64,000 nt of DNA from an archaeon GW2011_AR5 (lineage in GTDB: Archaea; Aenigmatarchaeota; Aenigmatarchaeia; GW2011-AR5). Of this stretch, positions 628 through 52,200 are shown piece after piece. Made by a program: the position numbers and the translations under genes. The notes beneath the pieces are model-generated. The model worked only from the letters and a program-made list of their open reading frames with translations. It was not told where the DNA came from and did no database searches. Within the stretch, counting starts at the first letter, position 1. The number at the start of each line of letters is the position of its first letter. The stretch lies in the NCBI GenBank assembly GCA_000806115.1, contig JWKQ01000002.1, forward strand, positions 174,551-238,550, in the 5' to 3' direction.

Positions 628-723
628 TATAGTGAACCCAGAAAACAGGCTCGATATGAATTCTGAGTTCACATATAGTTCCCAAGGAAAATAATACCCA
701 AAATGTTTCCTTGGAGAACTATA
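628..723 (+). repeat. Family A double-hairpin element (MITE-like)
   Basis: TATAGTGAACCCAGAA..TTCTGAGTTCAC-ATATAGTTCCCAAGGAAA..TTTCCTTGGAGAACTATA; stems nearly identical to those at 27675 and 35605. Confidence 0.9.
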
Positions 724-760
724 AGGTATTAAGTGTTCAGGTTTCAATAATTGTAAAAAA

Positions 761-865
761 GGGCTCGTAGCTCAGCTTGGATAGAGCATCTAACCCCACG
801 GTGTGCAAGCCTTCTAAACGATAGAAGATAGCAGGGGGTCGCGGGTTCGAATCCCGTCGGGCCCA
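761..865 (+). tRNA. tRNA-Arg(TCT) with two introns (29/30 at 792-808; 37/38 at 817-829)
   Basis: Acceptor GGGCTCG/CGGGCCC, T arm GCGGG-TTCGAAT-CCCGT; BHB helices GCAT/GTGC and CTTC/GAAG. Confidence 0.88.
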
Positions 866-922
866 TATCCCCGCACTTTCAACCTTTTTAATATTAGCAG
901 TTAAAATCTTATTAGTGGTCGG

Positions 923-1690
923 ATGACTCGTATCATTGCTGTTGTTTCTGGGAAGGGTGGCGTGGGCAAGACAACCATGGTCGCCAACATAGGCACGGCT
1001 CTTTCGAATATGGGAAAAAACGTAATAATTCTTGACGCGAACCTCACAACGCCCAGCCTTGGAATGCACCTTGGCGTGCCGTTGTACCCGATAACGCTTC
1101 ACGACGTGCTCAAGGGGCGCGCCAACATCAGGGATGCGATTTACAAGCACGAGTCCGGAGTGAAGATAATTCCTGCCGGCATCTCTCTCCGTGATATGCG
1201 CGGCGTCGATTCAAAGGATCTGCCTAACGCGCTGCTCGACCTTCTGGGAAGCGCGGAAATAATAATTATTGACGCAGCCGCGGGATTAGGTCGTGAGGCG
1301 CTGGCTGCTATAGAAGCCGCGGATGAGATGCTGATAGTCACGAACCCTGAAATTTCTGCGGTGACAGACGCGCTGAAAGCCGTAAAGATAGCAGAACAGC
1401 TGGGAACGCACACGACAGGTTTTGTGCTCAACCGCGTAAGCGGCAAGAGTCATGAAATGACACAAAAAGACATACTTAACATGCTTGATAACGTCCCGTA
1501 TCTGGGACAGGTTTCTGAAGATGTCGCCGTCATGCGCGCCGTCTCCAGCAGGGTGCCTGTCGTGCGCCACAGCCCTTCTGCAAGGGCAAGCGGCGAGATC
1601 ATGAACATAGCTGCGTCCCTAGTTGGCGAAGAGACAAGAATCCGGGCTGTTACGCCATGGTACAGGAAGATGTTCCCTTTCATAAAATGA
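923..1690 (+). CDS. minD: MinD/ParA-family ATPase
   Basis: Deviant Walker A SGKGGVGKTT, IIIDAAAGLG, VTNPE motifs. Confidence 0.88.
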   Translation: MTRIIAVVSGKGGVGKTTMVANIGTALSNMGKNVIILDANLTTPSLGMHLGVPLYPITLHDVLKGRANIRDAIYKHESGVKIIPAGISLRDMRGVDSKDLPNALLDLLGSAEIIIIDAAAGLGREALAAIEAADEMLIVTNPEISAVTDALKAVKIAEQLGTHTTGFVLNRVSGKSHEMTQKDILNMLDNVPYLGQVSEDVAVMRAVSSRVPVVRHSPSARASGEIMNIAASLVGEETRIRAVTPWYRKMFPFIK

Positions 1691-1780
1691 GCTGATTCCA
1701 TGAGGAAGAAAAAGAAGCGCCTTTTGGATCCGGAGAGGGATATAGCGCCTATTAAAGGAAAAATTAAAAGAAGGATGTAA

Positions 1781-2095
1781 TTATCCGTAAACAATTACAC
1801 CTAATACTATTGAAAGATAAAGTATTATCCCAGTCGCCGACGAAATTATAACTGGCTTGTCCCTATGAACAATTCCGTAAAGGACCCAAAATATGGAGGT
1901 TATAGTGTAAGTCGCCCATGAAACAAGGGAAACTCCGGAAGCTGTTTTATTGCCCCATATTTCTATAACTTGAGGAAGGGTCATAACAAGGCCGGCAAAA
2001 ATAACAATATAGATGATTTTGTCCATTGCGCTTTTTATTTTATTATGATTGCGCTTGTCTTTTCTTTTAATTAAATGATGCAATGCGTGATGCAT
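1781..2095 (-). CDS. SemiSWEET/PQ-loop membrane transporter
   Basis: TLPQVIEIW..KTASGVSLVSW..FWVLYGI, three hydrophobic helices; start placed at MHHALHH. Confidence 0.75.
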   Translation of the reverse strand: MHHALHHLIKRKDKRNHNKIKSAMDKIIYIVIFAGLVMTLPQVIEIWGNKTASGVSLVSWATYTITSIFWVLYGIVHRDKPVIISSATGIILYLSIVLGVIVYG

Positions 2096-2096
2096 C

Positions 2097-49589: not shown

Positions 49590-49646
49590 TGATATTATGA
49601 AAACAAGGCTACTTACCGCGACTGGCCTGATGAAGGGTGATTAGCA

Positions 49647-50855
49647 ATGGCTAATCGTCTAGTTATCGGACTTATTTTCCTGCTCATTTCCTTCCCCGCA
49701 TTTGCTGAGACAACCGGCGTAATAAATTTCAGTTTTGTGAATGTCTCTGTCCTGACCGGACTTGCCGGGTACACTGTCAATCTGTGCAACACAACCTCAG
49801 GCTGCCTTGGACATACGTGCTTTCTGGATTATGATAATTTCAGCAGCGGATTCAGCTATGGATGGTGCAATTCCAGCGTCATAACCAGCTGCTTCCACAA
49901 CAACAGCGAATATTCCACAGGAACGAACATATGCGTCACTAACCTGACGACAAGATCCTGCAGCTCAGGAACATGGCAGGGAATTGCGAACTGCAGCTCC
50001 GGCCAGACGTGCCCGTCGACAGCCGGCTTCCCTGGCAACTGCACCACCAGCAGCTCAAGCAGCAGTTCCAGCAGCAGCGGCTCGAGCTCCAGCACGAACA
50101 CGTCCAGCAAGGCGTCGTCGATTATCTTCACTTCATACCCGCTGAGTTTCGAGATTGTTCAGGGAGAATCGACAACCAGGGTTGTGATTGTCCAGAACAA
50201 CGGCAATACAACATTATATAATATTACACTCTCCTCGTCCTCCACCTGGTTGTCTGTCCGGCCCGTCAAGTGGAATCAGAGTGTAAAAAACAATGAAACC
50301 GCGTTCACGCTGAACATCTCCATACCGGCTGATGCCGCCGTCAAGGCGCATACTGTTACGCTTGAGGTTACGACTCACAACGCATCGCTCAAAGCCGGCA
50401 AATCTTTTGACATAACAGTCAAGCCGAGCAACAAAACCGTGCAGGAACAAATTTTTCCAGACTATGACAGGTACCTTGAGATACTGGCAGAGCTTGAGAC
50501 AACCGTAAGTTCGCTCGGTGCATCAGGTGCAAACGTCGAAGAAGTGCAGGCATTACTGCTGAATGCAAGGAGCAAGCTGTCACAGGCCAACCAGTCTCTT
50601 GAGTCGAAAGATTATTTTACAGCCCAGCAGCTTCTTGGCGACGCAAAAGGACTGCTTGACGCCGCGTCGACGCAGGCTGCGTCAATATCAATACCGGGCT
50701 CCGTCCCCGTTGTTCCGGCGGACTTCACTTTGATGATAATAATAGCGGTAATCGCGGGAGTCATAGTGTTCGTAGTTTACCTCCTGCTGCCGCCCGGAAA
50801 ATCCAAGCCCGCTTCAAGCTTTTTTGAAAAGTCGGGCGAAAAGAAAAAGAAATGA
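49647..50855 (+). CDS. Membrane-anchored surface protein (Cys-rich domain, poly-Ser linker, Ig-like domain, C-terminal TM)
   Basis: Signal peptide, Cys cluster, Ser run, V.NNGN.TL.NI motif, TM plus Lys tail. Confidence 0.75.
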   Translation: MANRLVIGLIFLLISFPAFAETTGVINFSFVNVSVLTGLAGYTVNLCNTTSGCLGHTCFLDYDNFSSGFSYGWCNSSVITSCFHNNSEYSTGTNICVTNLTTRSCSSGTWQGIANCSSGQTCPSTAGFPGNCTTSSSSSSSSSSGSSSSTNTSSKASSIIFTSYPLSFEIVQGESTTRVVIVQNNGNTTLYNITLSSSSTWLSVRPVKWNQSVKNNETAFTLNISIPADAAVKAHTVTLEVTTHNASLKAGKSFDITVKPSNKTVQEQIFPDYDRYLEILAELETTVSSLGASGANVEEVQALLLNARSKLSQANQSLESKDYFTAQQLLGDAKGLLDAASTQAASISIPGSVPVVPADFTLMIIIAVIAGVIVFVVYLLLPPGKSKPASSFFEKSGEKKKK

Positions 50856-51655
50856 GATATATGGCATTGAATAATAATGAGAAAAAAGCCGTTCTGCTGG
50901 CGTCGGCTTCTTTCATTGCATCGCTTCTTTTCCTGAAATTCAGCGGCTTTTCTGTCTCGTCAATCGTGAATTTCTACAACCATATAATCAAGTCGGTCAT
51001 CTTTTCAGCGTCGACGGATACGATATCAGCAGTGGGGCTTCTCCTTAACCCCTTTGTTCTTGTTTTTGCATCGCTTGTATTTCTTGCGCTTGCAATTTCA
51101 GTGCTGGCGTCTTTCGGCACTCAAAAATCCGGGAATATCTCGGGAATTATAGGGGGAATTGCCGCAGTTGTCATGTTCTCTTCAATAGCAGGCATATTTC
51201 TGGCAGTAGCCGTTTTTTTCTGCTCCTTCGCGCCGCGTTTCTCTTCCATGTACTCAAGGGAAATGAAGAAATGGGTGAAGTTTAGGACAGGCTCCAATAC
51301 TGCAGGAAAAGTCCTGCTGGTTTTCAACATTCTCATTGCATTAGGGATATTTTCTTCAGTCCTCGCTTATCAGGCAGATTACGAAGCGTCCTTCAAAAAT
51401 GAAATGAGGGATTCTGTAAAAGCGCTGGCCCTCTCCCTGCCGGGCGCGTCAGGAATGTCGTCCGAGATGTTGAATGAACGGGTGGAATATACAACGAATT
51501 CCCTGACGAACTCGGAGTTTTTCGGGGCATACATAACATGGCTGCCCGTGTCGGCAGCTTTTACTGCATGGGTCATACTTGAATTCCTGAGGAATCTTGT
51601 GCTCACGAATATTGCCGGACTGTTTGCTCGCTTGATGATGAGGGGGCGGGTTTAA
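50852..51655 (+). CDS. Multi-pass membrane protein
   Basis: Several hydrophobic helices. Confidence 0.65.
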   Translation: MRYMALNNNEKKAVLLASASFIASLLFLKFSGFSVSSIVNFYNHIIKSVIFSASTDTISAVGLLLNPFVLVFASLVFLALAISVLASFGTQKSGNISGIIGGIAAVVMFSSIAGIFLAVAVFFCSFAPRFSSMYSREMKKWVKFRTGSNTAGKVLLVFNILIALGIFSSVLAYQADYEASFKNEMRDSVKALALSLPGASGMSSEMLNERVEYTTNSLTNSEFFGAYITWLPVSAAFTAWVILEFLRNLVLTNIAGLFARLMMRGRV

Positions 51656-51659
51656 AAAT

Positions 51660-52103
51660 ATGTCCGATAAGTTAAGCCAGATGAAAGAGAAGTTCAGCCC
51701 TGACATGATTATGAAGTACGCATGGGCGGCGCTGATAGTTGTTGTTATAATTGTACTTGTAGTGGTGATAATCCTGCCCGGTACGGAATCAAAGTCGACG
51801 TGTTCCGGTTTCCAGTATTTCGTATTCCTTAACCAGAAGATGACGGAAGACGGCTATTCTATAGAACTGCTCAACGGGGTTGGCGACATAAGGATCCGAA
51901 GCGCAACCGTTGACGGGCTGAATATAGGCATTTCAACTATTGATGTACCATCGGGCGAGAAGTTCATTTTGACGTCAGCGCATGATCCTACAGTCAGGCG
52001 GGCTGACGAAACATTCAGCTCGAGAGTTTCAGTGCTTTATGACGTCGTGAACGGGATAGATAACAACAGGGATTCTGCCGCGTGCACAGGCAGGGTGCAG
52101 TGA
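51660..52103 (+). CDS. Pilin-like membrane-anchored protein
   Basis: IMKYAWAALIVVVII..CSGF resembles the archaeal pilin YGWA motif but lacks KG|Q. Confidence 0.55.
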   Translation: MSDKLSQMKEKFSPDMIMKYAWAALIVVVIIVLVVVIILPGTESKSTCSGFQYFVFLNQKMTEDGYSIELLNGVGDIRIRSATVDGLNIGISTIDVPSGEKFILTSAHDPTVRRADETFSSRVSVLYDVVNGIDNNRDSAACTGRVQ

Positions 52104-52105
52104 TT

Positions 52106-52200
52106 TATAGTTAACCAAGCAAGTAAACAGAATATTATAGCTTGGTTCACCATATGTGACCAGCTTATGTAATACCGAAATATTAAGCTGGTCGGCTTTA
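52106..52200 (+). repeat. Family A element, divergent subtype (like 5654)
   Basis: 95 bp; TATAGTTAACCAAGC..GCTTGGTTCAC-CATATGTGACCAGCTTA..TAAGCTGGTCGGCTTTA. Confidence 0.78.

Follow-up and report, generated by a model that had tools for sequence, protein, structure and literature searches.

What kind of genetic unit is a repeat of about 95 bp that folds into two abutting hairpins and recurs, in both orientations, along a 64,000-nucleotide stretch of a small archaeal genome? The stretch, here called the window, is G000:C2:174551-238550, where G000 is the source genome, that of the archaeon GW2011_AR5 (an assembly of 858,244 bp in three contigs, 87.6% complete, with a G+C content of ~49%); runs in which stretches of the window recur are labelled as groundwater or soil metagenomes. 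An earlier note, made from the letters of the window alone, had described the repeat as a structure-selected mobile or regulatory element. [quoted passage not shown] The family is apparently new and its kind well known. The literature that we searched held no description of this family, with the proviso that the supplementary MITE lists of PMC11602168 may contain one; that paper reports, for a Woesearchaea genome, a density of 105 MITEs per Mb, and it lists MITEEc1_IS630.

Scanning the whole genome with an nhmmer profile that took eight window copies as input placed the repeat at 47 non-overlapping sites (E<1e-3). A covariance model, R1, built from 28 full-length G000 copies and applied to both strands at E<=0.01, gave 64 matches in the 858 kb, read as 47 distinct places. 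Ten of its copies lie in the window, together with a degenerate copy and with a solo hairpin at 27801 that is missing from the earlier note's list (Table 1). The element, or something related to it, is present at all 11 places that the note had listed, the one at 27569 being the degenerate copy. The motif TATAGTKAAC with at most one mismatch occurs 16 times in the window against 3.79 +/- 2.07 expected, and none of 100 shuffles reached 16. From the nhmmer table we curated 39 elements; absent from this set are C2:153364, C2:192276 (window 17726), C1:45240, C1:40247, C1:67298 and C1:298504, places that the covariance model alone, or chiefly, detected, as well as the solo hairpin-2 units at C2:62062 and C2:286870. 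Alignment A1 holds 28 of the 39 and excludes long variants, nested copies and two copies of the TTAAAG subfamily. The constant length of about 95 bp claimed previously stands as a length cluster, its exact figure depending on the borders chosen: from TATAG to CTATAA, the eight simple window copies measure 97, 96, 96, 89, 96, 96, 93 and 96 nt. Copies lie between open reading frames (ORFs), or overlap only ORF ends with uncertain starts, according to crude ORF calls.

The consensus of the element is TATAG-TGAACCCAGAAAAG-loop-TTCTGGGTTCA-CA(G/T)ATAG-(T/C)TC(C/A)CAAGGAAG-loop-TTCCTTG(G/T)-A-GA(A/G)CTATAA, in which the ATA(G) between the hairpins is common to both stems. The one-base bulge that the earlier note placed in stem 2 is indeed there, as an extra base in the outer (3') arm of hairpin 2; the inner (3') arm of hairpin 1 likewise has one extra base. 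Folded as single-stranded DNA, each of the eight simple window copies outdid 200 of 200 shuffles (z from -4.2 to -8.7), and seven of the eight formed the two abutting hairpins that had been proposed by eye. The loops were previously described as largely unrelated; they are in fact conserved inside subfamilies, the hairpin-1 loop approximates the reverse complement of the hairpin-2 loop, and it is homologous to the end of an insertion sequence, as detailed below. Three copies (window 26450, C1:438987 and C2:99801) have the hairpin-1 loop inverted in an intact stem.

RNAalifold, run on a MAFFT alignment, recovered hairpin 2 alone, with its inner pairs out of place, and we therefore used a hand-drawn structure of 27 pairs. 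Across the 28 copies of A1, 88.7% of pairing cells were complementary, compared with 78.2 +/- 0.8% after shuffling (none of 500 shuffles reached the observed value) and 30-44% with slid partners. Compensatory changes occur in 17 of the 27 pairs, with 64 doubly changed cells versus 13 singly changed ones, and the compensating stem changes seen by the earlier reader thus amount to significant covariation. When the alignment was widened to 63 matches (57 distinct) from at least 12 genomes, 94.1% of cells paired, 18 of 27 pairs were doubly changed, and 153 double stood against 7 single cells; because it was fitted to the covariance model, this larger alignment leans toward the structure. Among 750 cells, 651 were Watson-Crick, 14 were G-T and 23 were A-C. 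With G-T below A-C, there is no wobble signature of a one-strand RNA, and the palindrome is kept at the DNA level. Stem sequence varies among subfamilies, complementarity is kept and the one-base bulges persist.

A candidate source of these ends was found in relatives. In one genome of the same genus (G004) and one of the same family (G014), we identified an insertion sequence of 1,129 bp that runs from TATAG to CTATAA, the two units being 72.7% alike. Each has one ORF of 347 aa with its stop codon within the right end; its product scores 118.6 bits on Pfam DDE_3, matches HTH_32/33 too, and reaches 228.8 bits on the NCBIfam model transpos_IS630 (NF033545, equivalog, cut-off 100). Metagenome contigs supplied nine more copies, with transposases 64-87% identical and T-TA-TAG...CTA-TA-A borders throughout; two of the nine repeat the G004 locus and two have a common right flank, and the IS copies with those termini come to 11 in total. 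An IS630-type transposase with matching ends, one of the sources that the earlier note had envisaged, is therefore present in G004, in G014 and on metagenome contigs. Pfam DDE_3 matches occur in six of 40 relatives; the IS630-like genes of G011, G022, G025 and G027 have different ends and were rejected as partners.

Nucleotides 1-31 of the left end of this insertion sequence are identical at 28 of 31 positions to G000 copies C1:132869, C1:245189 and C2:61896, and the match extends over hairpin 1's outer arm and loop. Short BLAST searches with the IS ends gave five matches at E<=0.01, every one inside an element, and in 33 of the 39 curated copies the element's left end has the IS left end, not the right one, as its closer match. 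Between the two IS ends themselves, only 21-22 of 31 positions agree, so each hairpin is the fold-back of one end, not a pairing of left with right. We also asked whether hairpin 2 might be copied from the right end of the insertion sequence; the copies showed no preference (13 nearer the right end, 20 nearer the left, 6 ties).

Comparison with relatives identified sites with and without the element. Gene order is conserved with the same-genus genomes, whose coding DNA is 64-77% identical. At the first site, between a leftward gene ending at window position 608 and a tRNA gene at 761, the G000 copy at 628 reads CTATGTTTT-TA-TAGTGAAC...GAACTA-TA-AGGTAT; the empty alleles are CTATATTTTTAAGGTAT in G002 and CTATGTTTTTAAGTTAT in G009, with the joint pattern CTAT(A/G)TTTTTAAG(G/T)TAT. 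At the second site (G006:C8:49191), G006 reads CTGTTGC-TA-TAGTTAACCC...GAGCACTA-TA-AAAGCGG where G002 has CTGTTGC-TA-AAGATGG. In both pairs the insertion is precise and bounded by TA at either side, and the empty orthologous site has a single TA. The flanks of the 39 curated copies follow suit, with T (31) or A (8) before the left TA and A after the right TA in 35 of 39; from these T-TA...TA-A borders, the preferred target would be TTAA, with its central TA duplicated. Filled and empty pairs, TA flanks and IS end homology together bear out the mobile part of the original reading.

Other loci were less clear-cut. Copy 17726 is skipped by the contigs of three of four metagenome runs, which have 11 other letters instead, a weak observation given its short sides and a 90% likeness cut-off. 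For copy 18828 we found no precise empty site, as the spacers are too diverged, those of G005 and G006 being merely shorter. The spacer of the first site also holds, in G009, a copy of another subfamily. Its orthologue in G006 (G006:C8:40340-40610, corresponding to window 609-760) contains an unrelated insertion of ~90 bp with two hairpins, bounded by repeated TATTT, which suggests further families of small elements in the genus. At the joints 23220-23283, 26398-26602 and 27568-27968, metagenome contigs show unknown letters between short sides, from which we drew no conclusion. Scans for the junction pattern returned one stretch, from an archaeon metagenome-assembled genome, in a genome-contig collection and none in a viral-contig collection; records near the window genome may have been excluded from these scans.

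The element is common in the family of its host and sporadic in the rest of the order and class. R1 (E<=0.01) was positive in 26 of 40 relatives including G000, with 1-102 matches per genome and roughly 850 in all; every one of the nine same-genus genomes was positive, as were 18 of 23 in the family, and in the order five further families had positive members. Sampling the class evenly gave matches at E<=1e-5 in 13 of 151 genomes; within the family the figure was 10 of 13, and outside the order there were just two single matches. The copies differ in age. In G000, the median nearest-neighbour identity of the 28 aligned copies is 85%, with no twin at 97% or above, and these copies are old; in G013 (400 kb), the median is 99%, a twin at 97% or above exists for 16 of 26 full copies, and several subfamilies consist of near-identical copies.

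The explanation that we favour runs as follows. Each copy is non-coding, ~96 bp long and flanked by a duplicated TA from a target that is usually TTAA, and its outer arms correspond to the parent's terminal inverted repeats. Within either half, the opening 12-16 bases of the end have their complement in an inner arm, which folds that end back and gives two abutting hairpins. The 347-aa DDE transposase of the 1,129-bp insertion sequence would move copies in trans. To judge from the shared ends, this transposase or a close variant of it probably moves the element by cut-and-paste, and the flanking TA is presumably a duplication and not an equivalent offset. As the insertion sequence is not in this assembly, the G000 copies are old, stranded passengers in intergenic DNA. 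What keeps the fold-backs base-paired may be selection for a transposition structure, template-switch correction of quasi-palindromes, which is a known mutational process, or repeated fold-back origin. The term structure-selected, applied in the earlier note, describes double changes that keep pairing, which may reflect selection or the mutational correction of palindromes.

Several points weigh against this derivation. Its main gap is the missing enzyme: G000, at 87.6% completeness, has no IS630-family transposase (DDE_3 gave 0 candidates, and the best tblastn match had E 0.97), and none was found in the element-rich G002, G009, G013, G021 and G023. In G013 this holds for a 10-contig, 90%-complete assembly that shows recent bursts. 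DDE_3 occurs in only four of the 26 element-bearing genomes, and two DDE_3 genomes lack the element. Compared with the IS right end, the right ends of the elements match at 18.8 of 31 positions on average (24 of 31 at most), and compared with the IS left end at 19.2 of 31, so that hairpin 2 is a diverged terminal repeat assignable to neither end; and because the IS ends themselves match at only 21-22 of 31, simple deletion alone does not explain near-perfect fold-backs. A TA duplication and an equivalent offset without duplication read the same in the letters, and mobility is read from comparison, no transposition event having been observed. The earlier statement that the window holds no transposase is correct and extends to the whole 858-kb assembly, in which no DDE_3, Y1_Tnp, TnpB-type or IS1595 domain was found. 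An autonomous partner is commonly missing from genomes with MITEs and is not a defining requirement for them; here the enzyme may be on unassembled or extrachromosomal DNA, or may have been lost.

Two abutting bulged hairpins with covarying stems also invite comparison with single-stranded elements moved by a Y1 (HUH) transposase, such as REP/REPIN-RAYT systems or the palindrome-associated elements (PATEs) of IS200/IS605, a likeness that the earlier note had drawn together with attC sites. The two hairpins would then be those of the left and right ends, recognised on single-stranded DNA, and the element would insert next to a short target that is not duplicated. Filled and empty alleles formally fit insertion 3' of TTA without duplication, the curated copies are unevenly oriented (28 plus versus 11 minus), and Y1_Tnp genes occur in 11 of 40 relatives, eight of them element-rich. 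However, no Y1_Tnp was found in G000, G013, G011 or G021, each with 46-102 element matches, and of the 17 Y1 loci in relatives, 13 lack an element within ~1.5 kb, the other four showing no fixed layout and numbering about what element density predicts. The 28/31 identity of the hairpin-1 outer arm and loop to an IS630-type end, and the same T-TA...TA-A flanks on the IS630 copies, are also at odds with a Y1 enzyme, and the symmetry of the flanks (T-TA / TA-A) favours TA duplication, of which it is the expected outcome. We regard movement by a Y1 enzyme as extremely unlikely. Genes of the IS200/IS605 Y1 type are common in the genus (G002, G003, G004, G006, G008, G009, G017 and G033) and absent from G000; the one at G003:C91:6887-7243 lies within a 491-aa open frame.

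The regulatory alternative would make the repeat a module conserved because the cell uses it: a promoter or TATA cassette, a regulator binding site, a terminator, an insulator or a gene for a small structured RNA. The copies occupy spacers and have ends reading TATA(A). In this genome, TATA-like hexamers are most frequent at -30 to -27 relative to start codons, a position that points to leaderless genes and that is shared by 11 of 78 element ends; yet this 14% equals the 13% of random intergenic TTAA, and in G013 the count is 3 of 52. Targeting of promoters or TATA boxes, considered as an explanation in its own right, likewise found no excess (11/78 in G000 and 3/52 in G013, against nulls of 7.1% for intergenic TA and 13.0% for intergenic TTAA). 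In tandem contexts, hairpin 2 points toward the downstream gene in 11 cases versus 3, a split with p ~0.06. Copies are 73-89% alike between genomes, above the surrounding coding DNA at 64-77%, which could speak for function, but the sites are unconserved between sister genomes, and the copies occupy all spacer types (13 divergent, 14 tandem and 10 convergent; n=37), roughly in proportion to spacer DNA. An RNA gene is further disfavoured by the pair counts, in which G-U does not exceed A-C, and by Rfam 15, which gave only tRNAs in the window; three copies had microRNA-hairpin matches of 18.6-22.9 bits against cut-offs of 50-100, and no described RNA family matches the element. A role for which the host retains the repeat is thus very unlikely, if a shade less so than a Y1 origin. 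Some copies may be neutral even inside archaeal promoters, because their ends regenerate TATA-like motifs upon landing in TTAA. The orientation bias noted above (p ~0.009 among the 39 curated copies, on arbitrarily oriented contigs) showed no tie to replication and none that is firm to gene direction, the tandem split of 11 versus 3 by crude ORFs becoming 9 versus 5 in a hand tally.

A second family of palindromes accompanies the first. It consists of ~50-bp units that pair two hairpins of 24-26 bp, TA|CA(A/G)GG...CCTG|TA|CAGG...CCTTG|TA, and its stems covary as well. Such units are inserted within copies of the main family, seven exactly at the central TA and two at a TA in the hairpin-2 loop, and they occupy at least 12 other places, at times as a solo palindrome of 24 bp with a TA at either end. 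Because this family has the same design, the plan TA-hairpin-TA-hairpin-TA is recurrent. G013 contains, in addition, nine copies of a solo AAGTGAACCAAG... hairpin after TTG(C/A)GTGT, which suggests yet another composite element.

The fold-backs could themselves be a working part of the transposon. Stems would rebuild, from one strand, the double-stranded end to which the transposase binds; extrusion would bring the TA junctions within a few bases of one another; and an element much too short for bending, 96 bp here and as little as 24-50 bp in the second family, could nevertheless have its ends recognised and paired by an IS630/Tc1-mariner enzyme. This proposal would explain the strict Watson-Crick compensation, the conserved bulges, the inversion of a loop with its stem intact and the shared plan of two unrelated families. 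We consider it unlikely on balance. If true, a DDE cut-and-paste transposase would here have a substrate that depends on structure; we know of none described. The twin fold-back and the still smaller 24-50-bp TA-flanked palindromes offer a natural minimal-substrate series for an IS630/Tc1-mariner transposase.

The features are collected in Table 1. Seven window tRNA genes were found by Rfam, and six of the seven measure 102-136 nt, lengths from which we take these six to bear introns; ARAGORN reported a tRNA-His at 41903-41976 only. Together with the genome size, the intron-bearing tRNAs suggest a DPANN-like archaeon, and a protein of the window falls into clusters whose members are all archaeal. 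Window positions 10001-12000 have a G+C content of 0.369, compared with 0.45-0.51 in the rest of the window. In four metagenome runs, the summed contig depth at 27672-28338 and 35009-36342 is 4-6x that of neighbouring bins, as expected if the element is common to many organisms there.

Table 1 Copies of the twin-hairpin element, units of the second palindrome family and tRNA genes (window positions unless a contig is given)
Feature	Position	Strand	Evidence and context
Full twin-hairpin copy	628..724	+	R1 97.9 bits; between leftward gene and intron-bearing tRNA gene; clean empty site in two sister genomes
Full copy, CTGACCAAC/CAAGT stem subfamily	5654..5749	+	R1, folding; ORF start 14 nt downstream
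TTAAAG-ended subfamily copy	17726..17848	+	R1 46.9 bits; 21-bp TA-flanked mini hairpin (17757-17777) inside hairpin-1 loop
Full copy, reversed	18828..18923	-	R1 97.3 bits, folding; spacer shorter in G005 and G006
Reversed copy of 89 nt, diverged and shorter	23181..23269	-	R1 62.2 bits, folding
Full copy, hairpin-1 loop inverted relative to most	26450..26545	+	R1, folding; between tRNA gene (26262-26397, -) and ORF start
Degenerate TTAAAG-subfamily copy, approximate borders	27569..27643	+	By eye and repeat D16 (90% to 17777-17806); not found by R1 at E<=0.01
Best window copy	27675..27770	+	R1 106.4 bits; folding z -7.3
Solo hairpin-1-like unit, 3' arm decayed	27801..27842	+	Small unrelated hairpin separates unit from 27675 copy
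Full copy with nested 54-bp mini double-hairpin (35673-35726, one TA counted)	35605..35754	+	R1 89.4 bits; nested at TA in hairpin-2 loop
Copy with TACTG left end, GAAATCAG/CTGATTTC stem	41301..41393	+	R1 81.7 bits, folding
Copy of CCAAG / GACCAGC stem subfamily, TTTAA right end	52106..52201	+	R1 57.1 bits, folding
~50-bp family	35673-35726		
Same family, 21-bp mini hairpin	17757-17777		
~50-bp family	G000 C2:22631		
~50-bp family	G000 C1:311523		
~50-bp family	G000 C1:431280		
~50-bp family	G000 C1:15861		
~50-bp family	G000 C1:200655		
~50-bp family	G000 C1:302136		
tRNA gene	761-865		Rfam
tRNA gene	26262-26397	-	Rfam
tRNA gene	59395-59505		Rfam
tRNA gene	60014-60130		Rfam
tRNA gene	61690-61791		Rfam

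The element makes up ~0.5% of a very small archaeal genome and reaches ~100 matches per 1.2 Mb in relatives. The covariance model is ready for annotating such genomes and for flagging assembly break points, and pairs of donor and empty sites can be used to date insertions in uncultured lineages.

Among known systems, the closest are the IS630-family MITEs, which include Sulfolobus SM1, pneumococcal RUP and enterobacterial ERIC/MITEEc1. Like these, the element is short, non-coding, multi-copy and intergenic, with a TA duplication, IS630-homologous ends and presumed dependence on a transposase acting in trans. It is set apart by its small archaeal host, by ends that are each folded back into two abutting hairpins instead of one long left-right hairpin, and by stems that covary among subfamilies with a conserved one-base bulge. 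Neisseria Correia elements, which the earlier note had also named, appear similar in their ~100-150 bp, their TA duplication, their TATAG-like ends that create outward TATA-like motifs and their intergenic position; they differ in that they are usually drawn as one hairpin of two terminal repeats, and here the host is archaeal and a partner insertion sequence is identified. The enzyme that mobilises Correia elements is, to our knowledge, not established. With REP/REPIN-RAYT systems and IS200/IS605 PATEs the element shares small palindromic repeats, compensatory stem changes, hairpin pairs and intergenic placement; unlike them, it has no link to a Y1 gene, has TA on both flanks and bears the ends of a DDE-type insertion sequence. 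Stowaway-type MITEs of plants and animals derive from Tc1/mariner elements, duplicate TA and have the potential to form hairpins. The archaeal element resembles them in its TA duplication, its derivation from the Tc1/mariner/IS630 superfamily and its hairpin potential, whereas Stowaway elements belong to eukaryotes, are longer and fold their terminal repeats into one hairpin.

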